Assembly (NCBI GenBank): GCA_963703285.1
Contig: OY969807.1
Location: forward strand, 1,600,001 to 1,664,000
Length of the DNA stretch: 64,000 nucleotides
Reading direction: 5' to 3'
Source of the DNA: an uncultured Nitrososphaerota archaeon
GTDB taxonomy: Archaea; Thermoproteota; Nitrososphaeria; Nitrososphaerales; Gagatemarchaeaceae
Below, one piece after another: positions 48,850-64,000 of this stretch (within the stretch, counting starts at the first letter, position 1; each line of letters opens with the position of its first letter). The notes beneath the pieces were generated by a model. That model was not told the DNA's origin. It was given only the letters and a program-made list of their open reading frames with translations, and did not search any database. A program made the position numbers and the translations under genes.

Positions 48850-49751
48850 TGCTTCCCACCCATCAGCTCCGAATACGCCTGCTCCAGACCCAGGCCGGCG
48901 TCCTGGAGGGTCCGTATCCGCAGCTTCACGACCTCCTCGACTAACCTCTCCCTGCCCTCCTCGGTGCCGTCGAAGTCCAAGACGTAGGTCCTCTCGCTCT
49001 CCTTGGTGTATCTGGTCGCAAGCCCCCTCTGTTGCAGTGCCGCCACCGCCGACTGGTCCACGGGCCGCGTGAACTCAACCCTGATCGACTTCGAGCTGAA
49101 CCGCCTTGCCAGCTCCTCGACGCCGCCGCTCTCGACTATCCTTCCCTTGTCGATGAACGTGACCCGGTCGCACAACTGCGTCACCTCGTACAGCAGGTGC
49201 GATGAGAGGAAGACCAGCTTCTCCTTCTTCATGGTGAGTATCATCTTCCGGAATATCAGTGACTCCTTGGGGTCGAGGCCGGCCGTCGGCTCGTCCAGTA
49301 TGAGGACCTCGGGGTCCTGCGCGACCACGGCGCCCAGCAGGACCCGCCTCTTCTGGCCCTTCGAGAGCTTGTTGCACCTCGATTCGAGGGGAGGCAGGTC
49401 GAGCATCTCCTTCAGCTCGTCAAGGTGCGGGTCGGCCACCCTTCTTATCCTGGCCGCGAAAGTTATGAACTCCCTGACGTTCATCGAGCTGTAGGGCTCC
49501 GGGTCCTCCACGATGGAGCCCACGAACTTCAGCGCCTTGGTCGGTTCCTTCGTGACGTTGAACCCGTTGATGCTTGCCGTGCCGCTGTCCGGCCTGATCA
49601 GTGAGGTCAACACCTTCATGGAGGTCGTCTTGCCTGCGCCGTTCGGTCCAAGGTAGCCGAGGCAGCCCTTCCCCTCCATCCTGAGCGAGACGTTGTCGAG
49701 GATTGTGTGCTTCCCGAACTTTTTGGACACGTTGTCCAGTACGATGTCCAA
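48846..49751 (-). CDS. ABC transporter ATP-binding protein
   Basis: GPNGAGKTT, LSKGQ, ILDEP, SSH. Confidence 0.95.
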   Translation of the reverse strand: MDIVLDNVSKKFGKHTILDNVSLRMEGKGCLGYLGPNGAGKTTSMKVLTSLIRPDSGTASINGFNVTKEPTKALKFVGSIVEDPEPYSSMNVREFITFAARIRRVADPHLDELKEMLDLPPLESRCNKLSKGQKRRVLLGAVVAQDPEVLILDEPTAGLDPKESLIFRKMILTMKKEKLVFLSSHLLYEVTQLCDRVTFIDKGRIVESGGVEELARRFSSKSIRVEFTRPVDQSAVAALQQRGLATRYTKESERTYVLDFDGTEEGRERLVEEVVKLRIRTLQDAGLGLEQAYSELMGGKQ

Positions 49752-49786
49752 CGGCGGCGTTCGTCCAGCGCGCGTTATTTAGGAGT

Positions 49787-49814
49787 TATTCGGACAAAAC
49801 CGTAAATCGAAGAT
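49787..49814 (+). repeat. 28-bp repeated site, copy 1 (degenerate)
   Basis: TATTCGGACAA-AACCGT-AAATCGAAGAT. Confidence 0.65.
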
Positions 49815-49839
49815 GCTTGCCGGCTTGAAACGAAGAGCC

Positions 49840-50829
49840 ATGGAGCGACCGACGAAATTCGCTCTGGATCTAGCGATGGTGGTCTTTGGCCTAGGTCTCC
49901 TTCTCTTCCCGATGGCACCAACACAGGCGATGCAGAACCCTGGTCAGCCGAAGCCGGAGAGCGCGCCCGGCGGTTGCTGTGTTGATTCCGTAACTTTCCA
50001 CTTGACAGGGGCAAAATACGAAGTCGTCGGGGATTATGCTGGTGTGGCGGTTAGCGTGACGAATGGTTGGATCTCCAGCCTAGGGTTGGTCGTCTACGCC
50101 ACGCTCAAATCCGGTGCGAGCACCTACGTAGCGGCAGGCACCGTGACGATCGCCGCAAACGCGACCGCCTCAGTGTTCTGCGTAGACCTCCAGTTCGTTC
50201 CAGCGGGAGCTTACGCCGTCACCTTTGCGGCTGTTACGCTTTCTGATAATGCGGTGTCCGCCCCGACGGCTCCAATCTCGTTGGTCACCAGCGCTGAGTG
50301 GTCGGGTGAGGTCGGCATCTATGCGAATTCGAACAGCGGCAACCAGTTCCGCTTGTCCATAAGCTCGGACCAGGTGTACGTTGGCGACACGATCACGGTG
50401 AACGTCAGCGAGTTCAACACGAACAACGTTGCAAACAACGACACCAGGGCGGACCATTGGCAGATACCGGCAGCCCTGAACTCCTGCCCCAGCACGAACA
50501 TCCTGCCGTTCGGCATTGCAGTCTACAAGGGGTATTACACTGCGGGGAACGTGTCCCAGGGCATTCAGGTCCAGATTTTCCCCCAAGTGGTATGTCCAAC
50601 CGAAGCGACCGCAGTCACTGGGTACCTTATCCTGCCTAACAGCGACACGGCCTTCGTGCTGCCAGGCTTCTCATCGACAGCGATGGCCGCGAGCGTAGAC
50701 ATCGTCAATGGGACCTCCATCGGCATGGGGCAGTCGTTGCCGCTGAATCCGGGTTTCTATACGGTCGTTGCGGCAGACGAATGGGGCACCTTGGCGTTCC
50801 TCTACTTCCAGATCAACGGACTTCCGTAG
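49840..50829 (+). CDS. Secreted protein with the same two-Cys domain as 43177..44457
   Basis: Signal-like N-terminus; C-terminal FNT...PFGIAVYKG...CP...PGFYTVVAADEWGTLAFLYFQ; start 49813 or 49840. Confidence 0.8.
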   Translation: MERPTKFALDLAMVVFGLGLLLFPMAPTQAMQNPGQPKPESAPGGCCVDSVTFHLTGAKYEVVGDYAGVAVSVTNGWISSLGLVVYATLKSGASTYVAAGTVTIAANATASVFCVDLQFVPAGAYAVTFAAVTLSDNAVSAPTAPISLVTSAEWSGEVGIYANSNSGNQFRLSISSDQVYVGDTITVNVSEFNTNNVANNDTRADHWQIPAALNSCPSTNILPFGIAVYKGYYTAGNVSQGIQVQIFPQVVCPTEATAVTGYLILPNSDTAFVLPGFSSTAMAASVDIVNGTSIGMGQSLPLNPGFYTVVAADEWGTLAFLYFQINGLP

Positions 50830-50915
50830 GATAGGTTGGAGATTTATTCCGACCATAGCATTCAAACGCTAACAGAACTCACATGAACACCGGAGTTGGG
50901 GGATTCGGAAGTCTT

Positions 50916-51560
50916 TCATGTGGTGGTACTGGTGGTGCAGAAGAACACGTTCGCGGCGCCCTGCTCGACCTGCGCGCTCGAGAACTGGAGGATGCCGGTC
51001 GGGCTGGCTGGTATGACGACCTGGAGCACTCCGAGCTCGTCGTACGTCCAGTAACTGGTGCTCCCGCAGGGATAGAGCCTCTGGCTGCTGTACAGGATGA
51101 AGTTGAAGACGTCATACTGTCCTGTGGAGTTGGTTATCTTCGACTGGTAGGAACAGTTGCACGCGTTCGTCGCCTCGTAGGTGAAGCCGCCCTCGGCCGC
51201 GATGAACTTGGGGTTCGACTCTATGGTGGAGTCGACGATGTAGTTGGCGGGCGTGACCGGGACCGGGCACGCGTCGAGAGGGAAGAAAGCCTGCGTGCCG
51301 TTCGGGTATGTCACGGAGTATCCCTCCCACGTTGAGTTGGAGTAGCTGCTGAAGTCCGAGTCCGGCGGGACCTGCTTGAGGCAGCTGTCGTAAGCGGGTT
51401 GGGTGAGCGTGGAGGTGCGCGTGATAGTCTCGGTTGTGGTGGTTGTCGTGGTCTCAGGCGGCTTGGTGAAGACGAGCAGCACGCTCGCAGATATCAGCAC
51501 CCCGGCTATGATGATCGCCGCGACGACGGCCAGATAGCCTCGGGTCTGCTGGCTGCTCAT
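50916..51560 (-). CDS. Membrane-anchored Cys-rich secreted protein
   Basis: N-terminal TM AAIIIAGVLISAS, Thr linker, six Cys. Confidence 0.75.
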   Translation of the reverse strand: MSSQQTRGYLAVVAAIIIAGVLISASVLLVFTKPPETTTTTTTETITRTSTLTQPAYDSCLKQVPPDSDFSSYSNSTWEGYSVTYPNGTQAFFPLDACPVPVTPANYIVDSTIESNPKFIAAEGGFTYEATNACNCSYQSKITNSTGQYDVFNFILYSSQRLYPCGSTSYWTYDELGVLQVVIPASPTGILQFSSAQVEQGAANVFFCTTSTTT

Positions 51561-51583
51561 GAGAATCGTGGGAAAATCTGGCG

Positions 51584-51611
51584 TTTTGTGATTAATAGTT
51601 TTGTCCGAACG
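51584..51611 (-). repeat. 28-bp repeated site, copy 2
   Basis: CGTTCGGACAA-AACTAT-TAATCACAAAA; 7 nt after the upstream stop codon. Confidence 0.85.
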
Positions 51612-51618
51612 GACGTCC

Positions 51619-52032
51619 TTAGATTCCTCGGCCGAGCTTCTCGCTGACTACGGTTGATAGATAGTACGTGCCATCGACAATCTCAGGGCTGAGCAGGATT
51701 ACGAGGCTGCAGAGGCTGAGGAGTATGATGGCCAGACCGGGGATGATGAAAGAGGTGGTGTACCCCGTGGTCCCGATAAGGTACTGGTACGGACCGAGCA
51801 CCAGTGTTGAGAAGTAGTATCCGTGACTCTGAGACGAATAGCTCCCGCCCCAGTTGAAGAGAGCGAGCGCTATGGAGTTGAAGCCGGTGTAGTGGCCGTT
51901 GTTTGGACAGTTACCGTAAAGCCCGGAACAGATGACCCTAGTCGAGTATGGGATTATCGGCGCAAAGAACGCAAAGAGCGTCGCGAGGATGCTCGCGGCG
52001 GCGCCCCAACGAAGGCGACTCTTCCATCCCAT
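51619..52032 (-). CDS. Hypothetical membrane protein
   Basis: Two hydrophobic segments around a Cys-pair loop; fills the space between repeat copies 2 and 3. Confidence 0.7.
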   Translation of the reverse strand: MGWKSRLRWGAAASILATLFAFFAPIIPYSTRVICSGLYGNCPNNGHYTGFNSIALALFNWGGSYSSQSHGYYFSTLVLGPYQYLIGTTGYTTSFIIPGLAIILLSLCSLVILLSPEIVDGTYYLSTVVSEKLGRGI

Positions 52033-52048
52033 AATGCTGTTCGGGTGG

Positions 52049-52076
52049 GTTCGAGATTAATAGTTTTGTCCGAGCG
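52049..52076 (-). repeat. 28-bp repeated site, copy 3, preceded by a decayed AbrB 3' end (52088-52110)
   Basis: CGCTCGGACAA-AACTAT-TAATCTCGAAC. Confidence 0.85.
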
Positions 52077-52172
52077 TGAGAAACCTGCTACTCCTTCTCG
52101 GTGGCCGGCAATGTCGCTGCACGGTGGACTTCATAATTTACCATCGACTGAGTTCGATAAAATTCTGTTAAA

Positions 52173-52901
52173 TCATCCGGCACGTCTTTCGATAGTTACT
52201 CCAATCGCTTCAGTTCGCTCAGCAAGGGTCGGGTAGAATCTCGTCTGAATCCTGTACCTCATCGCCTTCCTAGTCTTCTCGCTTATCGCGCTCTCCCAAA
52301 GGGACAGGGCGCGTATCAGATCCTCGCCGTTCACGTACCTTGCAGCATCCGCGTCGCAGTTCAGCTCCGTCCGTCGTCTCCAATGAGCGTTGATCAGGCT
52401 GAGAAACGTGGAAGACAACACGAAGATGAGCACGGTAGCGACGCCTACGCCCACTTCCTCAAGGACAGCTGCAGACGCGCTGTAGGGCAGCACAGAAGAA
52501 ATCGTGATCATCAACGCGAGCGTGACAGCGAGGGATGGTAGAGGAATACGCAGGAACCTCCTAACACCGTCGTTCGACTTGATGTGAGAGAACTCGTGCG
52601 CCGCTATGGCCATTCTCTCGCCGTCGTCAAGCTTGTTCCAGTACCATCTCCCGAAGGCAACCCCGCCGGGGAAGCTGAATGCAGAATACGCGCGTCTCGC
52701 GAAGAAGTATCGCTGCTTTCTGTTCAGGCGATTGAGCACACCCATCCGCTCTGCGAGTTCATCCAATTGCGGCGAGTCGAACGGCTCGAGCTTGCGGCGG
52801 AACCTGAGAAATCGATATGCGAGGAAGCTCAAGCGAAGTCCAGCGTCAGTCGACGAAGGATATACGATTTCGTCTCCCTTTCGTGCTTGATTCTTAGCCA
52901 C
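52173..52901 (-). CDS. M48/HtpX-like zinc metallopeptidase
   Basis: AIAAHEFSHI, two TM helices, ELNCDADA, YPTLAER. Confidence 0.8.
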   Translation of the reverse strand: MAKNQARKGDEIVYPSSTDAGLRLSFLAYRFLRFRRKLEPFDSPQLDELAERMGVLNRLNRKQRYFFARRAYSAFSFPGGVAFGRWYWNKLDDGERMAIAAHEFSHIKSNDGVRRFLRIPLPSLAVTLALMITISSVLPYSASAAVLEEVGVGVATVLIFVLSSTFLSLINAHWRRRTELNCDADAARYVNGEDLIRALSLWESAISEKTRKAMRYRIQTRFYPTLAERTEAIGVTIERRAG

Positions 52902-53024
52902 TCGTCAATGCGTTGCAGACTTGAGTATCCCGTGCAGTCCGGCCCCCGCCAGGAGGAGGCCGACAAAAGCCAGCCCGTATTCTATCGGTCCGGGTCCGCC
53001 AATCGAGCTGATTCCGCGGTCGTT

Positions 53025-53855
53025 TCACGTCGCTATGCTTGGGCAAGACCGGCCGCTGTGATTAATAGCTATGTCATGTCCGAACCTGAGAAATCTGCTA
53101 GTCATTCTCGATGACCAGCTTCCCTCTCTTGAGCCTCTGCTGCAGTTCTTGGCCCAGGGTCTCGCAGACGACGATACTTGAGCGCATTCTTGCTTCGACC
53201 GTCGCTGGGGCTCGCGGGCACCCACTCGCAGGCCTACCAGCCAAGGCCGTGAGTCGGTACTTTCGGTTGCGTTCCAGCTAGACGCCGGCGGCGACGGGGT
53301 CGGTGGGGCGTGCGCTGTCGACGCCGTTTGGCCTTCGTCGCGCTTCCTGGCGCTGAACGCCTCGACCGCGAAGATGAGCAGGATGATGGCAGCAACTAGG
53401 ATGTAGTTGAGAGGCGGCGGGAACGCCTCCGAGATCCTACCCAGGAACGGCAGCGAGAAGACGACCAGCCCCTTCACGCACTCGGCGGCGACTGGAGGCC
53501 ACCCGGTCGGCTCGTCGGGTGCCGGGTTCGTTTGCCTGTTGTCGCCCTGCGTTATCAGACCCTCGCTCGTGATGCCGACGACCCTGTGCACTATGACCTC
53601 GCTCGTGCACCCTCCTCCGACGGCCGGCCGCGCGAACACAATCACGTCTCCCACGTGGATGCTGCTGTACTGGATCGGCACGACGACCACTAGGTCCCCG
53701 ACTTCGAGGGTGGGCCTCATGCTGAGGGTTGGGTAGACGTCGTAGACCTGGATGCCACCTATCCGGTCGTTGATGAGGAACGCCGCCCCGGCCACGACGA
53801 GCAGGACGACCACCGCGTAGGCGGCGGCGTGGCTTACCTTGCTCTTCGAGTTCAT
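53025..53855 (-). CDS. Signal peptidase I (Sec11/SipW type); 3' end probably reads through into a remnant
   Basis: SMRPTL, GDVIVF, IVHRV, TQGDN...PD; the last ~70 codons overlap an AbrB remnant and repeat copy 4. Confidence 0.8.
   Translation of the reverse strand: MNSKSKVSHAAAYAVVVLLVVAGAAFLINDRIGGIQVYDVYPTLSMRPTLEVGDLVVVVPIQYSSIHVGDVIVFARPAVGGGCTSEVIVHRVVGITSEGLITQGDNRQTNPAPDEPTGWPPVAAECVKGLVVFSLPFLGRISEAFPPPLNYILVAAIILLIFAVEAFSARKRDEGQTASTAHAPPTPSPPASSWNATESTDSRPWLVGLRVGAREPQRRSKQECAQVSSSARPWAKNCSRGSREGSWSSRMTSRFLRFGHDIAINHSGRSCPSIAT
53054..53086 (-). repeat. 28-bp repeated site, copy 4 (with a 5-nt tandem duplication)
   Basis: GGTTCGGACAT-(GACAT)-AGCTAT-TAATCACAGCG. Confidence 0.75.
53098..53157 (-). 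pseudogene. Remnant of the small AbrB-like gene
   Basis: Translates as GQELQQRLKRGKLVIEND*, versus GQELRQRLKKGKLVIEKD* in 60776..60937. Confidence 0.8.
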
Positions 53856-53975
53856 GTGCACCGGAAGCGTGCTAGTCAGCAGGGGTGGGAGATGAGGTTG
53901 TCGATGGGCTCGTGGGGGCCCTGGGACGTGTAGTCGCCAACGCTTATCTCCAGATAGAGGACGGGCCTCCCTTCC

Positions 53976-55252
53976 TTGAAAGCGGGCGGCGCGCTCCGTA
54001 ACCGGGACTTCGCGCGACTCTTCTTCGCGGGCGCTGCGTCTATCGGGGGATTCTCAATAGGTCAGGTCGCCGTAAATTATCTGGTCTTCACCAGAACTCG
54101 CTCTTCGATAGACCTCGCCGAAGTCGGAGTGGCCTTCACTATCGGCTTGGTCACTCTAAGTCTCTTCGCGGGGACACTTGCCGATAGGCAAGATTGGCGG
54201 GTACTCATGATAGTCTGCGATGTGGTCAGGGCCGCGGCACTTGGCCTCGGGACGCTCTGGCTCCTCTTGATCGGGTTCAACCTGTCGCTGGTCCTCGTGG
54301 TGAGCTTCATTCTCGGCTCGTTCACCGCGTTATTCCAGCCCGCGGAGCGCGCGATGATGCCAACAATCCTGCAGAAGCACCTGCTCGCGGAAGGTAATGG
54401 TCTGGTCCAGCTGACCAGCTCCCTTGCCCAGGCTATCTCGAACGCTCTCGGCGGGGCCCTCGTCGTCGCAGTCGGGGCCATCCTGGCCATTGGATTGAAC
54501 TCCGTAACCTTCCTCGTGTCCGGCCTGCTCATCGTGACGCTGACGATAAGGAGACCGCAGGCGGACCCCGGCGGCAGACCGTCGCATGAAGCGAGGCCCA
54601 GCTTCATCGAGGACACTCGGGAGGGCGCCAGGTACCTGAGGGGCAACAGGCCACTCTTCCTGCTGACGATTTCGGCGGGCTTCGTGAATTTCTTCTTCTA
54701 TATGATGCTCCCCTATTTCGTAATCTACACGACCGACGTTCTGCATGGTGACGCGACCATCTACGGGCTCTTCCTCGGCGCCTTCGCGCTTGGCGCGGCC
54801 CGGGATCGCTGATGGTTGGAAGGTTCGGCATGGTCAAGCGCGCGGGTCTCGTGTGGACGGTTTCCGGGGTGGTGGGTGGAGCCCTTCTTCTATCGCTCAT
54901 ACTCGTCCCCGTCCCGGCGGTTGCCTTTGGAGCTATCTTCGCATTCGGAGTAGTGCTCGGAATCTCCAATACTACCTGGCTCTCGATCGTTCAGATAATC
55001 GTCCCCAACGAGATGCAGGGGCGCTACTTCGGGATCGACCAGCTCGGGAGCGTCGCTCTCCTCCCGGTCGGTCAGGCGCTAGGAGGCCTCGCCATCGCCT
55101 CGTTCGGACTTCCATGGACCTATGAGTTCGCTGGCGGCGCCTTCCTTCTAAGCGGCCTTGTCTTCCTTGGATTCCCCGCGCTCAGGAACCTTGGATACTC
55201 GAGCGGCGCGGAGCACGAGAAGGGAATGGGGCCAGGTTCGGGTCAAAATTGA
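53976..55252 (+). CDS. MFS transporter, split by a 1-nt frameshift at ~54795
   Basis: ORFs 53976..54812 and 54812..55252 are consecutive MFS halves (GTLADRQDWR; VPNEMQGRYFG). Confidence 0.85.
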
Positions 55253-55303
55253 GGGAGCAGACGCATGGCCGAAGGCGGGCGTTCTTTGCTGTTAGGCCAA
55301 GGT

Positions 55304-55612
55304 CTATGGACCGTTGGGAGTGGGCCGGTGTTTCGCAAGAGCCGCTCTTTCTTCCTCACTAATGGAATCCGAGTGTTTGATTAGTTCGTGGACGTAATCT
55401 TCGGCTTCGATCAACATTTTTTTGATTCCGTCCAGTGTCTTCACTTTGGTCATGTGTTCTATGTCATCAGCCAGCCCGATCAAACTCCTTGCCTCAACAA
55501 GGAGATATTTCAACTCTGGGTTCTCACTAGTTGACTTGGATAAGGCTTCGACTACTTGTCTTCGAATCTCTTCAGTCCTATCTTTAGACACTTGTGGCAT
55601 TCGCGTTATCAA
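55304..55612 (-). CDS. Putative immunity protein for the RHS toxin
   Basis: Small helical low-GC ORF overlapping or abutting the toxin stop codon. Confidence 0.6.
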   Translation of the reverse strand: MITRMPQVSKDRTEEIRRQVVEALSKSTSENPELKYLLVEARSLIGLADDIEHMTKVKTLDGIKKMLIEAEDYVHELIKHSDSISEEERAALAKHRPTPNGP

Positions 55613-58569
55613 AGTGTCATTTGAATATAACTAATTCCGTAGTCTTCGAGTGCTTGCCTGAAAGCTTGTCCTGCAAATGTTCCTGACCATGGATTGTCAA
55701 GCAGGATGAACAGAACCCTCGATGTTTGACCGGACATCTGTGCGAGCGCGTACTTGGCCATCTGTGTATCTGCGAAGTCACTGACCGATTGAGAACCGAC
55801 TTTGACGTCAACGCTTATTTCCGTGTCTGGATTGAAGAAATCTGGATAGAGCTTCCCGGCAAAAGTCGGAATCATCTTGCCTTCGATGAACCCAAGGGAT
55901 TTCATCAGTGGCCTCATGAAAGTCTTCCCCCACTCTCCTGTTGCTTGGGAATTGTCGGCTTTGGGACCGAGATCTTCCAGCATTGATGCCATTTCAGTAT
56001 TAACGCTGTCCTGTAGTACGCCGCCTGTTTCGTCCGAAATGGTTGCTTGGACAGGTAGCTCCTCTTGTGCTGCTGCCGCGGCTACCCCTGATATTGCACC
56101 TCCGACAAATGATGATGTTAGCGCAGATTCTGCTACGACCTCGCTTGCATCTGTAATAGGATCCAAACCGAGCTGAAACACATTAGCTATGGTAAGCCCT
56201 ATGACTGCGCTGAGAAGAATTGCTTGGGTCGGGGTCCATGAGAGGGGATTCCACCATGTCAGTCCTGAAGGATCGATTATCGCGAGGGGATTGTCCCGGG
56301 CATAAGCGTAAGCGTTCATGCTTTGTGGGTCCGACTGGACTCCGCCGATTGGGTCTGCCGTTAGGAACTTCCCGGTGCTCGGATTGTAGAACCTTGCGTT
56401 ATCGTAATAGAGGCCGCTCGCCGCGTCGAAGAGCATTCCGGCGTACATGAACTCCTCGCTGCCCGTCGCCCCGTACTGGATGCCGTACGGCACGTAGTCG
56501 CTGCTGAAGACCGGGGAGCCCCCGCTGGTCACTAGCCTCGTGCTCTCGAGCTCGTCCTGGTGGAGGAAGAGCGTCGACGATGTCGTGATGCTGGCCACCT
56601 GCATCCCGCTCGCGTAGGCGTATTTGGTAGCCACGCCCGTCTGGAGGCTCTTCTGGTAGACCACGTTCAGCCCCGAGTAGAGGTAGAGAGTAGTCCCGGC
56701 GCTCGTGGTCTGTTCGACGCGCCTCCCGTCCCCGTCGTAGTAGTTCTGCTGGACCAGCACGCCGTTATCGAACGCCTTCGTCATCTCGCTCTGGGTGTTG
56801 TACTCGTACGTCCAGACGTTGGTTCCATCGTTCTGCATCACGAGGTCGCCGTCTCCGTCGTAGGAGTACGTCGTCGTCCCGCTCGCGGTGGTAGACCTTA
56901 CGAGCTCGTCCATGCTGTTGTAGGTGTACTCGACCGTCGCCGACGAGTTCTGCTCCTTGACCATGTTCCCCGCCGCGTCGTAGGAGTAGGTGGTAGTCCC
57001 CCAGGGGCCTGTCGAGCTGGTGAGCCTGTCCAGCGCGTCGTACCCGAACTTCTCGGAGCCAATCGACATCACGTTGCCGTCTGCGTCGTACGTATACGAG
57101 AGGCTCAGCTCCTGCGTGGACCCCTTCGTGGTCGTGATGCTCGTCGGCTGGTCCATGCTGTCGTAGGCGTAGCTCGTTACCTCCCCGTTGCCGTAGGTTA
57201 TCGCGCTCGATCGTGTCGTCTGGGTTGTAGGTTAACGAGGCGTAGGTCGTCCCGCCGCTGGAGACCTTCGTCACCCTGTCGAGGGCATCGTACGAATATG
57301 ATACCTTGGTGGTGTCTGGGTACGTGATCGACTGCACGTCTCCGTCCACGTTGTAGGCGTACGAGGCGGTGTACGAGGCGGTGTACGAGGCGGTGTACGA
57401 GGCGGTGTACGAGGTACCGCCGATGATGTCGGTCTCGGACGTCTCCTCGTTAAGGGCGTTGTAGGAGTACTTGATCTGGTCGACGCCGTTCGTGACGGTG
57501 AGCTCGTTCCCGTTCTTGTCGTAGGTGTAGCTCGTGCTCGTGCCGTCTGGGTAGTTCACCGTAGCCAGCCGGTAGAGAAAGTCGTAGGAGTACGTCGTGA
57601 CGCGGCCCTCTTCATCCGTCGTGCTGACCACGTTGCCCACGGAGTCGTAGCTGGTCTTCTCGGTCGTGCCGTCCGGGTTGACGGTCTCGACCAAGCGGTT
57701 GAGGTCGTCATAGGAGTAGCGTGTGACTTGGTTCGCATCAGGCCCCACAACCTTCACGAGGTTTCCGGCGCCGTCGTATGTGTATGTGGTCGCGTTGTAG
57801 CCGCTGCCCCAGTACTCCCTGACCGCGACCAGGTTCTGCATGAAGTCGTAGACGTCCTGCGTGACGTGGTCGTCGCCGTCGGTCGTCGTCTCGGTGTTCG
57901 TCGTGTCGTTGTATGCCATTGATTCGTGCGACCCGTTGGGGTTAGTCACCCCGGTCTGCCTCCCGAGGCTGTCGTAGGTGTACCTGTAGGTCGCCCCGTT
58001 CGGCGCCTGTTCCGTCAGGACCTCGTTGAGCCAGTTGTAGGTGTAGTACTCGGCGGAGTAGGGCGCGGAGGGGGAGGAGTACGTCTGCTCTTCCGTGAGC
58101 CTCCCCAGCCCGTCGTAGTAGTACTTCGTCATGTTGCCGCTCGGATTGGTCTCGGTGACTACGTTGCTCGCGTCGTTGTAGGAGTAAGATGTGGTCGCGA
58201 CCACCCCATCGACGGCTGGAGAGGTCTCGGACGTGAGGCGCCCCAGCGCGTCGTACGTGTAGGTAGTCGTGTTCCCCTCGCCGTTGGTCTGGGACGTCAT
58301 ATCCCCGGTCGCGAAGTTGTAGGTGTAGGAGACCGTGTCGTCTGGCGCCGCGTAGCAGTTTGAGGTCCCCGACGAGGTCTCCGAGGTCACGTATGCGCTC
58401 TCGTAGGTCGAGGAGTAGGTGTAGCAGGTCTCGTGGTGAAGCGGGTCCGTCATCGTCTGCACATTAGCGAGGACGTCGTAGGTATAGGAGGTGATGAGCC
58501 ACGTGTTCACGCCGGGGGAGGGACTGTAGAGCTGCGCTTGCCTGAGCACCTCGCTGTTGCTGTAGTATC
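55609..58569 (-). pseudogene. RHS/YD-repeat polymorphic toxin, 5'-truncated, frameshift at ~57205, with a C-terminal PD-(D/E)xK nuclease-like tip
   Basis: Many YxYD..G repeats; RHS core YYDNARFYNPSTGKFLTADP...YAYARDNPLAIIDPSG; tip YPDF...SVDVKVG; in-frame stop just upstream of YYSNSEV with no plausible N-terminus. Confidence 0.88.
57359..57414. repeat. 12-bp tandem repeat GTACGAGGCGGT x4.7 (encodes SYTA repeats in RHS)
   Basis: Perfect repeat units read directly from the sequence. Confidence 0.95.
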
Positions 58570-59335
58570 AGAGTGGATTGCATCGACTGTAGGCCTCCTT
58601 GAATTAGAAGGAATCCTTGCTGGCGCAAGTTTCCTCGCCTATTTTACGTTACACGAACAGAAAGACAAATCCGTTAAGAGATTGGAAAAACTCAGGCTCC
58701 AACGAGTCAGATTAAGACTCTCAGATATGATAAAAGAGAATGCCAATTCTAAGGAGATAACCAAGGAGACCGAAGATAAGTTCCAAAATCTGTTTGAGAA
58801 CGAATACTCCGAAGCCTCTGAACCTTCGGGAACTCTCCGTACGATGGATGCGGCATTTCTATTCTCAGGGGTGCTTCTCTCTGTCGCCGCTCTCATAGAT
58901 TGGGCACAATCTAATCCCTCGCTCGTGCTACCGGCAGGGTCGCTTGTGCCGGTCGAAGCCGAGACTTTCGGGCTCGGGGTGTTACTCCTTGGCGTAGGAA
59001 TCTTCGAACTTGAAGGGCTTCGTAGAATGAGCGACAAGGAGCCAGACCTCGACCCTGCGCCCTTCGGCTATATCCTAATCTTTGGGTTGATATTCGCCAC
59101 CGACGCATATTTCCTATGGTTGACAACGACCTACTATAGCCAGCTCACACAGTTCGGTCAAACCCTCTTCTTTGCTTCTTTCTTGCCGATTGCCGGAATC
59201 ATTCTAGTTATCACGACATGGGAGGACGAAGATTGGAGGCGCATTCTGGGAATGATTCTTTTGTTTGCCCCATATGTGGTATACGCTATTTGGATTCTCG
59301 CCTATTCCTTGAGTTCGGTCGTTCACCTTGGTTAG
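58570..59335 (+). pseudogene. 5'-truncated multi-TM membrane protein, back-to-back with the truncated RHS gene
   Basis: Low-GC reading frame SEWIASTVG... begins at the RHS break; the upstream part of track ORF 58433 is antisense RHS. Confidence 0.55.
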
Positions 59336-59391
59336 CCCTTCGCCAGATACTCGCTCAGTATGTATCGAATCGTCTCCGGTATCGACTTCGA

Positions 59392-59647
59392 TCATGGGGA
59401 TGTCCGACGCATGTCGGAGAGCTCAGTCTTCGCGATAGCTTCGCGCTCTTCGGGTGTCGCAAACGAATCGTGGAAGAAAGAGATGGTCACTGAGGGGTTC
59501 TGCGGATCCGGCATTCTGATTTCGCCGCCGCCCCAGCCGTCGCAGACCTGGGTGAGCAGGACGAGTGCGGAGTAGGACATGCAAACTGTGCCGAGCTCGC
59601 CGAGCTGCCTCGAGTGGCGGCAGTTAGCGCAGGAGGCTTCCATAATC
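59392..59647 (-). CDS. Small Cys-rich hypothetical protein
   Basis: CANCRH...C...CDGW motif; frame stays open for 20 codons after the TGA. Confidence 0.45.
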
Positions 59648-59822
59648 ATGCCTCGCTTCTCTCTGGATGCTCTGTAGTGCGGCGGCTCCATGGCGAACTA
59701 GGTCGGAGGGCTACAAAAGGACCAACGTGTCTTGGATTCGTCTAGTCGCCGACGCTCTAGCCTGTGTAATTCTTCCACTCTGCCACAGGTTAATCGTTAA
59801 GAGCCCCCGATTCCGCTAGAGG

Positions 59823-60059
59823 ATGGAGGGCACCGGGTTGGATACCAGGAGGCTCAAGAATGGTCCCGAAATCGTCTTCCTGCTCGGGCTGATCGGCTTC
59901 CTTGTCTGGCTCTACTGGATGCTCTCCAGCCACCCCGCCCCCAATCCCTTCGTGACCTACACCATTCTCCTGATCTTCGTCTGGCTGATGATAATCTCCG
60001 CCGTCGAGATAGTCTACTCGTTCCGGGCAAGGCGGACCGCCGCGCAAAAGCCGAGGTGA
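59823..60059 (+). CDS. Small two-TM membrane protein
   Basis: 78 aa, two hydrophobic helices, TTAAG upstream. Confidence 0.65.
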   Translation: MEGTGLDTRRLKNGPEIVFLLGLIGFLVWLYWMLSSHPAPNPFVTYTILLIFVWLMIISAVEIVYSFRARRTAAQKPR

Positions 60060-60127
60060 GCCCTAGACGTTGTTCGCGACGAGGATGAAAAGCGCCAGCG
60101 AAGAACACGGCAGGCAGGACACACCTT

Positions 60128-60155
60128 CGTTCGGACAAAACTATTAATCAAAAAC
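60128..60155 (+). repeat. 28-bp repeated site, copy 5
   Basis: CGTTCGGACAA-AACTAT-TAATCAAAAAC. Confidence 0.85.
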
Positions 60156-60186
60156 TCGGAGGAGCGCCTAGCGGGCGCTTTCAGTC

Positions 60187-60684
60187 GTGAACCCCCAGTC
60201 CACCCGGCCCCAACTGGTCATACCCGCGGCGATTATCATAGCGGCCATCCTGATTGCCGTGAGTATATCCGTCGCGGTCGGGGGAGAAAGGACGACGACG
60301 GTCACAGTCACCCCCACGAACTCAACTGGCGAAGTGGTCTACAAGGTGACTTTCCAGCAGGTCCAGTACTGCGGCCTGTACAATATCCTGCCCTGGGCGG
60401 TGACTGTCGGCGGCCTGACGCAGGTCCAGCCGTCCAACCAGACTCTTCCATTGCCGACGAACACGTTCTCCACGGTCGTTCCGGACCAGAGCCTCACACG
60501 GATGACGTTCTACCTCCCCCCGGGCGCCTACAGCTACATCGTGTACGGTGGTTCGGGCAACGGCCCCGGGGGGCAGCTTTACCCGACCAGCGGGACCTTC
60601 CAGGTTGTCGGGTCGAACCTCGTCCTCAACGAGGACGTCTACCTGAGCTTCACGTGCGCGCCGACGACCAGTAGTATTGCATGA
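60187..60684 (+). CDS. Membrane-anchored secreted protein with a thermopsin/S-layer-like beta domain
   Basis: TM AAIIIAAILIAVS (similar to 50916..51560), YKVTFQQ...WAVTV...FYLPPGAYSY...SGTFQV. Confidence 0.7.
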   Translation: MNPQSTRPQLVIPAAIIIAAILIAVSISVAVGGERTTTVTVTPTNSTGEVVYKVTFQQVQYCGLYNILPWAVTVGGLTQVQPSNQTLPLPTNTFSTVVPDQSLTRMTFYLPPGAYSYIVYGGSGNGPGGQLYPTSGTFQVVGSNLVLNEDVYLSFTCAPTTSSIA

Positions 60685-60722
60685 GAGACCAGAAACCCGA
60701 CCTCAGATGCCCAAGACCGGAT

Positions 60723-60756
60723 TTTAGGGCCCTAAACGCGCTTATTAGGCATCTAA
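60723..60756. promoter_or_regulatory. Palindromic operator pair upstream of the AbrB gene
   Basis: TTTAGGGCCCTAAA (perfect palindrome) and TTAGGCATCTAA; degenerate copy at 60997-61030. Confidence 0.6.
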
Positions 60757-60775
60757 ACCAACACCTGGTCGTCAG

Positions 60776-60937
60776 ATGCGCCTGCAGAAGCAGAAGACGC
60801 GGGTCGTCAAGGGCAAGGAGTACTTCCGGTGGACGGTCGTCATTCCTCCGTCCAAGGTCAGGGAGCTCGGATGGAAGGAGGGGCAGGAGCTCCGCCAGAG
60901 GCTGAAGAAGGGGAAGCTGGTCATCGAGAAGGATTAG
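60776..60937 (+). CDS. AbrB/MazE/SpoVT-family DNA-binding protein (53 aa)
   Basis: Manual translation MRLQKQKTRVVKGKEYFRWTVVIPPSKVRELGWKEGQELRQRLKKGKLVIEKD. Confidence 0.85.
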   Translation: MRLQKQKTRVVKGKEYFRWTVVIPPSKVRELGWKEGQELRQRLKKGKLVIEKD

Positions 60938-60948
60938 CGGGCTTCTTG

Positions 60949-60976
60949 CGTTCGGACAAAACTGTTAATGAGAAGT
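60949..60976 (+). repeat. 28-bp repeated site, copy 6
   Basis: CGTTCGGACAA-AACTGT-TAATGAGAAGT; 11 nt after the AbrB stop; no gene downstream on this strand. Confidence 0.8.
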
Positions 60977-61106
60977 AGTGTAGCTTTTCATTGAGATTTA
61001 GGGTTCTAAACTTGGCCATTTGGTATCTAAGATCAATCTACGTCGTCGCTTTCTGATTCTGCTCTGGAAGTGAAAGGGGCGTAAGAACTTACCTATTATG
61101 AATTGT

Positions 61107-61853
61107 CTACTTGATTGCTTTGACTATAGCGGCCAGCTTCTCCTCGAAGTCCTTGGTCTGGAGCAGGTTGCCGATTACTACTAAGTCAGCTCCGGCCCTG
61201 GAGGCTGCCGAGGCGGTTTCTGGGGTTGTGACCCCACCCCCCACGATGAGAAACCCGGGGTACGACGCCCGAACGTCGGCTATCACGCCGGGTAGGATGG
61301 CCCTGTCGGCCCCGCTCCCCGCCTCGAGGTAGAGGAAGCGCATCCCAAGGTAGTGCGCAGCCATGGCGTACATGAGAGCGATGGCGGGCTTGTCGAGCGG
61401 GATGCCCCTCACCTGACCGACGAAGCCGGTCGTGCTGAACTCCCCGAAGACGAGATAGCCCATTGGAATAGCCTCGAGGCCTGTTTTCATGACCTGGATG
61501 GATCCGATGGCCTGGGCGCCGACGATGAAGTAGGGATTTGTGGAATTCAGGAGGGAACTGAAAAGAATTGCATCGGCGTGCGGTGAGATACCTGTGATGT
61601 TGCCTGGAAAGAGGATGACAGGGAGTGTGATGTCACGCTTCAGACGCATCACAACCTCGTCTAAACGTCCCTGATCGGCTATTGTTGAGCCTCCGATGAA
61701 GATGCAGGAGACTCCGAGCTCCTGGACCTTCTTGCCGAGCGCCGCGGCAGCATCTGGAGTGAACTCCTCGGGATCTATCAGAGCGGCTATCAGGGTGCCC
61801 TTCTCCTTCCTCACGCTCAGAAGAGCCCTCTCAGTAGGTCCAGGCTGGCTCAA
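61107..61853 (-). CDS. Geranylgeranylglyceryl phosphate synthase
   Basis: LIDPE, IGGST, ILFPG, SLLNS, YLEAGSGA, VGGG. Confidence 0.92.
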   Translation of the reverse strand: MSQPGPTERALLSVRKEKGTLIAALIDPEEFTPDAAAALGKKVQELGVSCIFIGGSTIADQGRLDEVVMRLKRDITLPVILFPGNITGISPHADAILFSSLLNSTNPYFIVGAQAIGSIQVMKTGLEAIPMGYLVFGEFSTTGFVGQVRGIPLDKPAIALMYAMAAHYLGMRFLYLEAGSGADRAILPGVIADVRASYPGFLIVGGGVTTPETASAASRAGADLVVIGNLLQTKDFEEKLAAIVKAIK

Positions 61854-61856
61854 AGG

Positions 61857-62111
61857 TTACGCACCGGTCTTGGCGAAGTCGTCCACGAAGGTGTTGTAGA
61901 CGTCGATGTCCGGCTTCTGGGTGGCGAACCTGAACTCGCGCCTAAGCTTGCAATTACTGTTTCCGCAGGCCACGACGGTTACGAAATCTTGTGATACTTC
62001 GTCCTGTTGTGATGTGATTCTGACGGCAACAACTCCGCAACGAGGGCAGCTGAATACTTTTGGAAGCGAACGCTTGTTGGCTCGTAGAACTTTCCTTCTT
62101 CTTCTCCCCAT
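61857..62111 (-). CDS. elf1: Transcription elongation factor Elf1
   Basis: MGRRRRK...LPKVFSCPRCG...CGNSNC...IDVYNTFVD; true start at the ATG at 62111. Confidence 0.88.
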   Translation of the reverse strand: MGRRRRKVLRANKRSLPKVFSCPRCGVVAVRITSQQDEVSQDFVTVVACGNSNCKLRREFRFATQKPDIDVYNTFVDDFAKTGA

Positions 62112-62317
62112 TTTGCTCGTCCAAGCCCTTTCACGCTCATATATAATATGGTTTTGCGAGGGAACTGTAGTCAATCGAAGCCCGGGCGAAGCCGATTTCT
62201 TGCAGATAACAGTCCAGAATACCAATATATTATACGGATAGATGCGAGAGTTGCTAAGATGTGTGCTAGACGGGTCCAGAAACACTAATACAGATTCGTA
62301 GATGCAGCTCTGGTCGG

Positions 62318-62674
62318 ATGCCATCTCAACTCGACGACTTCCTCGCGTCGCAGTCTTCGCTCACGCGTGTTCAAATCGAGCGGCTGCTGCTCCAGTTTTC
62401 GCTTCAAAACGACACGTCTGAAGGGGAAAGCAGGCCCAAAATCAGCGGCGTGAGCCCCGGAGCGTACTACCGGGTGCTGGGCCAGGCGAAGTCCAACATA
62501 GATCAGGCGCTCTACACCGTGCTGCTGTGCTCGAGGATTGGAGTGCTCCAGATGGACGATCTGCGGCGCCTGCTGGACCTGGTGAGCAAGGTTCCATCCG
62601 ATGTTGCGGACGTCGAGGCCCAGCAAGTGACCCAGCTCGTCGAGGCCCTCGTGAAGAAGATTGTGATGCTATGA
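62318..62674 (+). CDS. Conserved hypothetical protein (HTH-like)
   Basis: SSLTRVQ...VSPGAYYRVLGQAKSNI. Confidence 0.7.
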   Translation: MPSQLDDFLASQSSLTRVQIERLLLQFSLQNDTSEGESRPKISGVSPGAYYRVLGQAKSNIDQALYTVLLCSRIGVLQMDDLRRLLDLVSKVPSDVADVEAQQVTQLVEALVKKIVML

Positions 62675-62695
62675 TACGCACGCTTATATCATGTT

Positions 62696-63310
62696 GTGTC
62701 ACAGCCCCTTTTCGGGGTCGCGTTGGTCCTTATCGATGATGTAGTCGTCTCCATAGCCGCGGCCGTCACGACTGCGACCCTGGTCGTCCTCGTCGTCCTC
62801 CTCGCGAGGTACAGGGCTCTTGTAAAAGATGCAACCAAGTCTACGGATCTTGCGAAGAACCTCTGGGACGCCATGAATGAGAGGCTCACGACCCAGGACT
62901 CTCGTATCGTCGACATGATGGCGAAGTTCGAGGTGTACTCCGTGAGGAAGGGGGTAGGGCTCCCGCCGCCCGCGAGGCCACCCCCAACGTCCACAAACGT
63001 CCCCAGGTCGCCCGAGACTCGAGCTCAAGAGATGAGACTAGAGACATCACACCCAGTATCACAGGCCTCTCAGGCTCCGTCACAGTCAGGAATCACTACC
63101 AGGGAGAGGGAAAACCAGATTCTGCGCGCCCTTCTGGACGGTCCGAGGACCTCCAACGACATCCGGGCCGTGCTGGATGTGTCTAGGGAGCACAACGCGA
63201 GGCTGCTGAAGGCTCTTTACGGACGCGGGTTACTCCTGCGGAACGACGAGCACAAGCCCTTCGTGTACGAGATAACTGAGGCCGGCCGGCGCTATCTCGG
63301 TGCCGCCTGA
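62696..63310 (+). CDS. Membrane-anchored winged-helix protein
   Basis: N-terminal TM; C-terminal SREHNARLLKALY.RGLL.R...KPFVYEITEAG. Confidence 0.75.
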   Translation: MSQPLFGVALVLIDDVVVSIAAAVTTATLVVLVVLLARYRALVKDATKSTDLAKNLWDAMNERLTTQDSRIVDMMAKFEVYSVRKGVGLPPPARPPPTSTNVPRSPETRAQEMRLETSHPVSQASQAPSQSGITTRERENQILRALLDGPRTSNDIRAVLDVSREHNARLLKALYGRGLLLRNDEHKPFVYEITEAGRRYLGAA

Positions 63311-63526
63311 AGTACCTCCGTGCGTGCGCGCGTCAGGAGAGAGCGAAGCTTCGATTACCTTCCTGGATGCAGTCCAGTGAGTTCCGGGCTTTTACGTGCG
63401 AACCGTGTCGGGCCGCGGGGCCTTCCAGGCTGTTTTTCTGAAAAGGCTCAGGGTAGGCAGGTCCACTCCGCCGAGGTTGTTCCTTATATCGGAGAACCAC
63501 AACATACGATAAGGAGCTGCCAGAGA

Positions 63527-63877
63527 GTGGGAATAACCAAGGCATCAATCACCATTTTGGGCGACTCGGCCCATTCCGAAGTCGAGTTGGTTGTGGACAC
63601 AGGCTCCATCTTGACGTGGGTCAAATCCGACCGATTGAAGTCGATAGGGAGCAGGCCAAGGAGAGAGAAGGAATTCAGGACGATTGAGGGCAAAATCATT
63701 CACAGGAAGACAGGTCCGGCGACCGTTCGTTACGATGGAGTAGAAGCCGATGTCGAAGTCGTCTTCGGGGAGGAAGGCGACGCTGAAGTGCTTGGCGTTA
63801 CCGCCCTGGAGTCTCTGGGACTCCAGATAGATCCAGTGACTCTCAAGATAAACCGGTCGAGTCTTCTAGCTCTGTGA
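63527..63877 (+). CDS. Clan AA (retropepsin-like) aspartic protease
   Basis: LVVDTGS, LGVTALESLGLQIDP; GTG start at 63527. Confidence 0.85.
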   Translation: MGITKASITILGDSAHSEVELVVDTGSILTWVKSDRLKSIGSRPRREKEFRTIEGKIIHRKTGPATVRYDGVEADVEVVFGEEGDAEVLGVTALESLGLQIDPVTLKINRSSLLAL

Positions 63878-64000
63878 TTAGGGAGAAGACGCCAATCGCC
63901 CCAAAGAAGGGAGATGGGTTCAGATTCACCGGCAGTCAGCAGTTCCCATTCATGGACGTGATATGAATGACGCTACCTGAGGAGATGAGAAGGGTCGCGC

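Follow-up and report, generated by a model that had tools for sequence, protein, structure and literature searches.

A probable orphan of a DDE transposon: a stand-alone AbrB-fold regulator gene beside a predicted dispersed promoter in an archaeal genome

Introduction

A stretch of 64,000 nucleotides from a complete archaeal genome (2.25 Mb, 60.6% G+C), here called the window (G000:C1:1600001-1664000), contains an intact gene for a 53-aa protein of the AbrB/MazE/SpoVT fold. The gene stands by itself, with paired palindromes ahead of it and a conserved site directly behind it, and its 3' end recurs at two places some kilobases away. The reading proposed here has three parts: (i) the gene and its palindromes form an autoregulated solo cassette that descends from the regulator gene of a DDE transposon, (ii) the adjacent conserved site is a host promoter, (iii) the two distant stretches are copies of the junction between the gene and that promoter. 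Taken as a whole, this reading is held with moderate confidence. Positions given without a prefix are those of the window.

The AbrB gene and its product

The AbrB gene is flanked by a gene for a 165-aa membrane protein without a Pfam match and by the gene for PcrB/GGGP synthase. Its product matches the Pfam family PF04014 at 20.0 bits (E 6.6e-4), under the gathering cut-off of 24.7 bits, and a profile search of the PDB with the window protein finds AbrB at an E-value of 0.8 only. The family as a whole is recognised more readily, with 37 of 41 aligned members matching PF04014 (E <= 0.01; best 2.7e-8). An AlphaFold2 (AF2) model of the 53-aa protein, built on the family alignment, has a predicted local distance difference test (pLDDT) score of 93.9 and the order beta-beta-alpha-beta-beta (strands 2-11, 14-22, 39-44 and 47-52; helix 25-31), that is, half of a swapped-hairpin barrel. 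Foldseek ranks only MazE, AbrB, SpoVT, C56 or C68 among its top ten PDB matches, with probabilities of 0.28-1.00 and E-values of 0.07-1. As modelled, the window protein is a member of the AbrB/MazE-fold class. It stops one residue past the last strand of the model and has no C-terminal toxin-binding extension; the C-terminal tails of its relatives are short, basic and unconserved.

Of the 22 other genomes of the genus, 10 have an orthologue of the gene. P0001, from a closer relative, is 98% identical. Among six solo orthologues (the window and five further loci) dN/dS ranges from 0.02 to 0.25, dS being computable for 10 of the 15 pairs, and the gene is maintained by purifying selection. A distant paralogue that has an AbrB domain lies at G000:C1:1567458-1567574 on the minus strand; it shows 44% identity over 39 aa within a 110-aa frame and is conserved in the genomes G003 and G008.

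Paired operators and proposed autorepression

Two copies of a palindrome of the consensus TTAGGnnCCTAA, here called O1 and O2, precede the AbrB gene, and the same operator pair stands upstream of the solo orthologues. The TATA-like box within this region (TTATTA, 60742-60747) ends 28 nt ahead of the AbrB ATG, a spacing as at other promoters. Because O2 overlaps this box at a promoter-typical distance from the ATG, autorepression by occlusion of the TATA-binding protein (TBP) and transcription factor B (TFB) is the natural inference; the 53-aa protein would most likely bind the two palindromes as a dimer of dimers.

The association between gene and palindrome extends well beyond the window. In a family survey, for which one genome per species was scanned, 37 loci encode relatives of the protein; this set partly overlaps the loci obtained by genome search and is not independent of them. 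Sites of the TTAGGnnCCTAA type lie upstream of the AbrB gene in 29 of the 37 loci, with at least two sites in 24. The upstream windows, 4.7 kb in all, hold 71 sites as against 15 in the other 240 kb, which is a ~240-fold enrichment in the 130 nt upstream of the gene. Perfect sites number 0-4 per genome and are located at AbrB promoters and around the GGGP synthase block. At up to one mismatch the window's genome has 16 sites, against ~40 expected on a rough, composition-based estimate; there is therefore no sign of a large regulon, and only the clustering at the AbrB module is meaningful.

A second pair, O1' and O2', lies beyond the gene, with 76 nt between it and the GGGP synthase stop codon, and has the 21-nt spacing of the first pair. 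A 34-nt local alignment of the two operator regions scores 23, which is reached by 1 of 300 shuffles. An earlier note on this DNA, made from the sequence alone, had reported such a degenerate recurrence of the operator at 60997-61030 with no gene behind it, and the spacing and the alignment bear it out. An operator pair also stands beside the orthologous GGGP synthase gene in three species (G001, G012 and G002), in all of which the AbrB gene sits on another contig and the bases around the pair are unconserved. The pair reads TTAGGTGCCTAA, 10 nt, TTTGGTATCTAA in G001, is degenerate in G012 and has an altered spacing in G002. This conservation suggests that the O1'/O2' sites are used, and the pair probably serves as an anchoring site or as a target in the host.

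A further operator pair, with 22-nt spacing, is present on the far side of the GGGP synthase block in G002 (L061 12123-12156) and G001 (L062 12055-12088); it is missing at the matching place of the window (~63310-63380).

Transposon-borne relatives

Three loci from two congeners (L023, L024 and L025) show the AbrB gene as part of a larger unit of 2.4-2.8 kb, and all three have the full set of transposon features. The units end in a 17-bp terminal inverted repeat (TIR), GTTCTGTTCCGTTGATT and its inverse, and are bracketed by target-site duplications (TSDs) of 9-10 bp (TTACAAACG, CCGGAGGCGG and GTATTTAGG, respectively). The core genes on either side of the insertions are unrelated: NAC/ATP synthase, AsnC/DEAD helicase and isopropylmalate dehydrogenase/aminotransferase. 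Within the element the order is a DDE transposase gene, four palindromes, the AbrB gene and a convergent proteasome-beta-like gene (~280-330 aa). The transposase, of 338-398 aa, has a zinc ribbon, a helix-turn-helix (HTH) and DDE_Tnp_IS240/rve_3 domains, together with a SWIM-like CxC...CxH motif that was read by eye from the sequence; its best NCBIfam match is IS6 at 98.9 bits, below the 125-bit cut-off. The proteasome-like gene varies strongly, such that DNA similarity between copies ends at the AbrB stop codon and returns only at the far end of the element.

The same association is widespread among the 37 loci, which span Nitrososphaerota, Woesearchaeota, Aenigmatarchaeota, Methanocellaceae and Methanosarcinales. 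A transposase homologue is present in 22, divergently adjacent to the AbrB gene in 20, and a proteasome-like gene follows the AbrB gene in 15. The 15 operator sites elsewhere than in the windows upstream of AbrB are concentrated as well: 13 of them fall between +876 and +1105, at the beginning of the convergent proteasome-like gene. Operators thus cluster at all three gene starts, and the palindromes therefore appear to mark all three promoters of the element. For 15 more distant transposon loci the inverted ends were searched for automatically; all matches were of low complexity and none had target duplications. The portions of the literature drawn on, including parts of PMC4158269, PMC13343696, PMC7986276 and PMC8665760 and with ISfinder outside the scope, do not mention any DDE transposon in which an AbrB gene and a proteasome homologue occur together; PMC8665760 states that for the new proteasome homologues the genomic context was uninformative. 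A three-gene archaeal transposon in which a predicted AbrB-type repressor accompanies a DDE transposase and a proteasome-like peptidase has apparently not been described.

Several members of the family depart from this layout or add to it. The probable start of the proteasome-like open reading frames (ORFs; L023 8216-9214 and relatives) is an internal Met with Thr directly after it (…MTCIVAQ…, …MTTVFA…, …MTTVIA…); such a start would expose an N-terminal Thr nucleophile without a propeptide, and an operator lies ~17-28 nt ahead of it. At L017 (G017:C7:1039458) an AbrB-like gene is followed by a proteasome-beta-like gene on the same strand. L029 8091-8498 (G014:C8) encodes an AbrB domain fused to a C-terminal domain of ~80 aa, 136 aa in total, the added domain having no Pfam or NCBIfam match. 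At L067 4001-7666, L026 and L027 a solo AbrB gene adjoins the gene for DP2, the large subunit of DNA polymerase D, co-directionally in one case and divergently in two.

The window copy as a stand-alone derivative

Little of such an element is left around the window gene. No inverted repeats or target duplications bracket 60724-60937, the window contains no transposase gene, and the 17-bp TIR of the relatives has no match in the region concerned, the nearest (up to three mismatches) being at window position 23169. In the genome, four proteasome-like queries find no match, and the only close transposase homologue (62% identity, C1:319459-320604) lies in an A+T-rich patch with a zinc-ribbon partner instead of AbrB. 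Five genomes of relatives were searched for the transposase as well: four with an intact solo gene (G001, G002, G010 and G014) and G012, which has a degenerate copy only. They contain no close full-length transposase, and the homologues found there are distant (34-39%) or fragmentary. The absence of a cognate transposon from solo-bearing genomes is a weak finding, because these assemblies are incomplete.

The A+T-rich patch itself (G000:C1:319100-320604) has the transposase homologue divergent from a small zinc-ribbon ORF, with a different palindrome, ATACCTATTAGGTAT; it may be a sister element with a swapped regulator.

The direction of descent was read from a maximum-likelihood tree of 38 proteins and 56 columns, rooted at the midpoint. 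The window protein and five solo orthologues form a clade of solo copies only (support 97/84), which is nested in a clade of 12 rows (95/87) whose other six are transposon-borne. Purifying selection, this nesting and the loss of the element together point to a repressor that was kept after its element went. The window AbrB protein is thus probably a domesticated or orphan autorepressor and not an antitoxin; capture of a host gene by a transposon is less likely than domestication. The neighbours of the solo cassette differ between species: an alpha/beta-hydrolase gene within ~1.3 kb in three (directly adjacent in two), a response regulator gene in one and the GGGP synthase gene in the window.

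An orphan type II antitoxin of the MazE/VapB/PrlF kind, with its toxin lost or placed elsewhere, would be a different origin for a gene of this fold. The name of the Pfam family, MazE_antitoxin, points that way, as do the labels MazEF or PrlF antitoxin that some sources give to relatives and the presence of MazE among the top fold matches. Such an origin is highly improbable, for the surroundings of the gene do not fit it. The ORF list and the Pfam matches of the flanking genes give no toxin-like neighbour for the window gene. Across the 37 loci, none of 22 same-strand downstream ORFs matches a toxin family (18 loci have no such ORF), and 109 ORFs within ~4.5 kb in 11 loci include no PIN or MazF protein. 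The protein ends right after the fold, without the tail by which a toxin would be bound, and the conserved partners of the family are a transposase and a peptidase. The earlier note had observed that no toxin gene is adjacent to the window gene, as the membrane protein and PcrB/GGGP synthase genes on its two sides confirm; it had also named pairing of homologues with VapC/MazF toxins as a result that would go against its proposal, and no ORF of the PIN or MazF type was found among those 22. Its proposal, a regulator of a mobile element rather than an antitoxin, holds for the family, which lies beside a DDE transposase in 20 of 37 loci and between TIRs and TSDs in three. For the window copy it does not hold in that form, as this copy is a stand-alone derivative.

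A predicted dispersed promoter behind the gene

The site behind the AbrB gene belongs to a motif, TTCGGACAAAACTATTAAT, with 24 copies in the genome at up to three mismatches, five of them in the window where none is expected. An ORF of at least 50 aa begins 14-39 nt after the motif in 20 of the 24 copies, mostly at 30-31 nt, with ATG, GTG or TTG as start codon. The ORFs downstream of the motif share an N-terminal hydrophobic segment at residues 6-18 (19 of 23), often with Thr/Ser-rich sequence after it. The tRNA genes of the same genome have AAAAC-like and TTATTA/TTAATA-like boxes 25-35 nt upstream, and because of these the ACAAAAC-TATTAAT part of the motif reads as a TFB-recognition element (BRE) followed by a TATA box. 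The whole motif then reads as a TTCGGAC upstream half-site, an AAAAC BRE and a TATTAAT TATA box. It is present in 21 of the 23 genomes of the genus, with up to 43 copies, and control matches number 0. By the spacing of its boxes before gene starts and by its conservation across species, TTCGGACAAAACTATTAAT is a predicted dispersed BRE/TATA promoter, mostly of genes for membrane-anchored surface proteins, and not a recombination site or the end of an element.

The motif does not depend on the AbrB gene. Only three of its 24 copies have an AbrB fragment upstream, and in G012 it precedes homologues of the 137-aa membrane protein of the window (Table 1) without any such fragment. A recombination site of the att type was considered and rejected, given that copies 2 and 3 described below are inverted with respect to copy 1 and that the 24 copies are dispersed, each before a gene start. 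No integrase was found among the ORFs listed for 50-64 kb, seven of which were scanned against Pfam. A false lead is thereby removed: the supposed recombination site would be a promoter.

A sequence one mismatch from the operator consensus, TTAGGTAGCTAA, occurs at G000:C1:1664946 and 1672357, just past the end of the window, in both cases 32 nt upstream of one of two paralogous TTCGGAC-type promoters. This could be chance followed by duplication, or a link between the two systems.

Relics of the gene-promoter junction

The 3' end of the AbrB gene and the promoter behind it recur at two places on the minus strand. The stretch 53077-53155 is 78% complementary to 60880-60958 over 79 nt (copy 2), and 52056-52109 is 81% complementary to 60916-60969 over 54 nt (copy 3); copy 1 is that of the intact gene. 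A degenerate pattern made of the last AbrB codon, the stop codon, the 13-nt linker and TTCGGACA matches exactly three places in the genome, 60932-60958 on the plus strand and 53077-53103 and 52067-52093 on the minus strand, and its reversed control matches none. The pattern has no match in the 22 other genomes of the genus and none in metagenome contigs. The features of the three copies, with the other promoters and the operators, are collected in Table 1.

Table 1. Positions of the AbrB gene, the operators, the junction relics and the TTCGGAC-type promoters in the window
Feature	Position	Strand	Remarks
Gene for a predicted DNA-binding protein of the AbrB/MazE/SpoVT fold, 53 aa	60776-60937	+	Intact ORF; solo copy without transposase
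Operator O1, TTAGGGCCCTAA	60724-60735	+	Sole perfect TTAGGnnCCTAA in the genome
Operator O2, TTAGGCATCTAA	60745-60756	+	Overlaps TATA-like TTATTA (60742-60747)
Second operator pair, O1' TTAGGGTTCTAA (60998) and O2' TTTGGTATCTAA (61019)	60998-61030	+	No TATA-like box and no ORF behind
13-nt linker CGGGCTTCTTGCG, stop codon to promoter motif	60938-60950	+	Common to the three copies only
Orphan promoter copy (predicted), TTCGGACAAAACTGTTAAT	60951-60969	+	No ORF at the usual distance; first ORF 141 nt off, antisense to the GGGP synthase gene
Copy 2 relic, 18 codons and stop (GQELQQRLKRGKLVIEND*)	53098-53157	-	Read through by the tail of a signal-peptidase ORF in another frame
Copy 2 linker CAGATTTCTCAGG and altered promoter	53054-53097	-	TTCGGACA at 53084-53077, TATTAAT at 53067-53061
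Copy 3 relic, ~6 codons and stop (...GAGAAGGAGTAG)	52088-52109	-	AbrB 3' end
Copy 3 linker CAGGTTTCTCACG and intact promoter CTCGGACAAAACTATTAAT (52056-52074)	52056-52087	-	23 nt from the promoter's end to the ATG of the gene (51619-52032) for the 137-aa membrane protein
Exact promoter copy without AbrB fragment	51591-51609	-	30 nt from its end to the ATG of a gene (50916-51560) for a Thr-rich anchored protein of 214 aa
Exact promoter copy without AbrB fragment	60130-60148	+	38 nt from its end to the GTG of a gene (60187-60684) for an anchored protein of 165 aa
Diverged promoter copy, 3 mismatches	49789-49807	+	Before a 338-aa secreted protein gene (49813-50829)

The relics are restricted to the end of the gene. 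Neither copy 2 nor copy 3 retains anything of the operators or of the gene's first 104 nt, and for the 5' half of the gene no similarity is found, 228 of 300 and 128 of 300 shuffles, respectively, scoring at least as high as the observed sequences. Because the 5' part shows no similarity, these copies are 3' fragments rather than decayed whole modules. The promoter of copy 2 has a spacer 5 nt longer and a destroyed BRE, and it lies ~160 nt upstream of an M48 peptidase gene (52173-52901). Solo orthologues in four other species are homologous to the window at the DNA level between 60724/60734 and 60936-60939 and not beyond, a segment that begins with the first operator and ends with the stop codon; no promoter motif follows the gene there. 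As the junction is confined to this genome and the homology of the orthologues ends at the stop codon, the relics are therefore read as local duplications of the promoter with its upstream flank and not as insertions of an element. The junction would have arisen in this lineage and then been copied twice within 9 kb. The favoured origin is a duplication or gene conversion seeded in the repeated promoter, with 20-60 nt of upstream flank carried along.

The earlier note had described the region as one intact and two decayed copies of a module made of operator, AbrB gene and site, with the gene as the conserved terminal part of a repeatedly inserted small element. The intact gene and the two homologous minus-strand stretches are real, as the ORF, the 78% and 81% complementary arms and the three junction matches attest. 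The decayed modules turn out to be 3' fragments, their 5' halves being no better than shuffles, and the site is not private to the module, as only three of its 24 copies are accompanied by an AbrB fragment. The view of a repeatedly inserted element linked to the site finds neither TIRs nor TSDs, and the junction occurs in none of the 22 other genomes of the genus searched. That homologues should always abut the site, which had been set beforehand as a test, is contradicted by the orthologues in the four species without the motif after the gene.

A related possibility is that the ~215-bp cassette of operators and AbrB gene remains mobile as a small non-autonomous unit, either mobilised in trans or shifted when operator pairs recombine, and that copies 2 and 3 are decayed whole insertions beside promoters. 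The cassette does occur in different contexts in five species, with homology running from O1 to the stop codon; the window gene has an operator pair on each side, and the family is transposon-borne elsewhere. This account is nevertheless rather unlikely. No inverted ends, target duplications or relatives' TIR are found near any of the three copies, copies 2 and 3 lack every trace of the operators and of the gene's first 104 nt, and the downstream operator pair exists in species that have the AbrB gene elsewhere. All three copies share the linker and the promoter, which lie outside the cassette in other species; the copied segment therefore includes host promoter DNA.

The AbrB 3' end and linker might instead be a functional upstream element of some TTCGGAC promoters, for instance an activator site, that has been selected at three of them. 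All three copies lie at the same distance directly upstream of the motif, and copy 3 stands before an intact gene at normal spacing. Against this, 21 of the 24 promoter copies and the promoters of the homologous genes in G012 do without such an element, the 78-81% identity with scattered substitutions resembles neutral decay, and the promoter of copy 2, with its lengthened spacer, is itself damaged. A hairpin or terminator at the end of the AbrB gene and its relics was looked for and the sequences fold no better than shuffles (z 0.42, -1.27 and 0.30); no Rfam family matches within 49000-64000 at E <= 0.1. A selected upstream element is accordingly given little credence, less than a cassette that still moves.

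Between the M48 peptidase and GGGP synthase genes there is no synteny with G012, where the order and strand of both genes are kept. Because of this lack of synteny the neighbourhood is regarded as a variable island rich in TTCGGAC-type promoters. An inversion of ~53158-61075 that split a second AbrB copy, so that its operators would now be at 60998 and its 3' end at 53157, was rejected: the sequence after 61030 has no similarity to the 5' part of the gene, and no inversion joint was found in the DNA contigs of four soil runs. Synteny with G012, G002 and G001 ends at the GGGP synthase gene, and this is all that the comparison made for the inversion showed.

Two observations concern the surroundings of copy 2. 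An ORF for an S26 signal peptidase (53025-53861, minus strand) continues for ~100 aa of low-complexity sequence beyond its last membrane helix and through the AbrB relic; the incoming relic may have taken the place of the ORF's natural 3' end. Downstream of the copy 2 promoter, at 52894-53046 on the minus strand, two frames taken together resemble a small protein whose N-terminus is charged and which has a single membrane helix (…IEYGLAFVGLLLAGAGLHGILKSATH*), with a frameshift in between. This remnant may be the gene that the promoter once served.

Proposed history and its weight

The history that best fits these findings would start from an archaeal DDE transposon in which the AbrB gene lay between the transposase and proteasome-like genes, with the same palindromes over all three promoters. 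The window cassette (60724-60937) would descend from the regulator gene of such an element, with the transposase, the peptidase and the inverted ends lost here, and would persist as a self-contained unit: the protein, bound to the paired palindromes, would cover its own BRE and TATA box and so repress its own transcription. In this lineage the cassette would have come to lie directly upstream of one promoter of a surface-protein gene. A short segment made of the AbrB 3' end, the 13-nt linker and the promoter would then have been copied twice nearby by segmental duplication or gene conversion. Any activity of the relics, present or past, would be that of a promoter alone, for the 137-aa membrane protein gene in one case and, in the other, where the promoter is now damaged, upstream of the M48 peptidase gene.

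Several points weigh against this history. Repression and promoter function are deduced solely from position and conservation, and no target gene was identified for the orphan promoter at 60951 or for O1'/O2'. The window protein falls short of the Pfam gathering score (20.0 as against 24.7 bits), and its Foldseek E-values are weak (0.07-1). The tree has 56 columns and a midpoint root, and capture of a host regulator by a transposon would be the opposite direction. The assemblies of the relatives are 54-96% complete, and insertion sequence (IS) elements often go unassembled. The mechanism of copying is itself inferred, and whole-cassette copies that later lost their 5' parts would leave identical relics. 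Finally, the solo cassette lies at different places in five species, with sharp borders of homology, and these hints at mobility are left unaccounted for.

A more far-reaching version of domestication gives the solo AbrB gene two jobs in the host: immunity against incoming elements that carry TTAGGnnCCTAA, and a new function at the operators on the GGGP synthase side. This is offered tentatively, as a somewhat doubtful extension. If it were true, the transposase, regulator and peptidase promoters of incoming elements would all be shut, and a regulator of an archaeal mobile element would have been turned into a factor of genome defence and host regulation. An orphan class of proteasome homologues would then also be tied to transposon biology.

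The window would represent the remnant state, in which the element is lost and the repressor retained under purifying selection. The relics would illustrate how a dispersed promoter can drag neighbouring coding sequence along when it is copied. The system is also compact: one 53-aa protein, two DNA sites of 33 bp and a 12-bp palindromic operator could serve to test archaeal repression and the domestication of a regulator.

Other features of the window

A gene with YD/RHS repeats (55609-58549, minus strand) is split into the overlapping ORFs 56765-58549 and 55609-57156. At 57208 one base is missing from contigs of two soil runs, X1 and X2, and the frameshift may reflect either a difference between strains or an error of assembly. 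In X1 the 12-nt tandem repeat at 57359 is also 24 nt shorter, and one contig of this run passes over 57806-59529 (1724 bp). An ORF at 63515-63877 on the plus strand has a C-terminal DTGS motif and resembles an aspartic protease of the retropepsin type, as recognised by eye.

Comparison with known systems

The proteins closest in fold are those of the AbrB/MazE/SpoVT family (PF04014; PDB 1yfb, 2k1n, 1mvf, 2mrn and 2w1t), which have the same size and the same half-barrel of beta-beta-alpha-beta-beta order as the modelled window protein and provide the top fold matches. Bacillus AbrB recognises loose sites, whereas the predicted target of the window family is a short, exact, paired palindrome, TTAGGnnCCTAA; and in contrast with MazE, the family has no toxin partner. 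Archaeal proteins of the AbrB fold with 50-70 aa are also known: C68 of pSSVx (3o27), C56 of pSSVi (7xi6) and Sso7c4 (2l66), two of them on mobile elements and all among the fold matches. They come from plasmid or virus hybrids of Sulfolobus and not from DDE transposons, and their identity to the window protein is ~20%.

Transposons of other kinds encode their own repressors of the transposase promoter, such as InsA of IS1 and, acting at res or at the promoter, TnpR of the Tn3 family. As with InsA and TnpR, the element described here encodes a small protein, predicted to bind DNA, with sites over the divergent promoters of transposase and regulator. The differences lie in the AbrB fold, which replaces an HTH or a serine recombinase, in the archaeal promoters, in a third regulated gene that encodes a proteasome-like peptidase, and in the existence of a window copy without its element.

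For the transposase, the nearest known group is IS6/IS26: IS6 is the best NCBIfam match of the relatives' enzyme, the Pfam domain is DDE_Tnp_IS240, and an HTH and a DDE core are common to both. Unlike IS6/IS26 members, the enzyme scores 98.9 bits as against the cut-off of 125 and has extra N-terminal parts, SWIM-like and zinc-ribbon. The 17-bp TIRs and 9-10-bp TSDs of the element compare with inverted repeats of 14 bp and direct repeats of 8 bp in IS6, according to a review of the IS6 family (Varani et al. 2021, PMC7986276). The element has two passenger genes, whereas just one IS6 member is named in the same review as having a passenger gene, and it has one.

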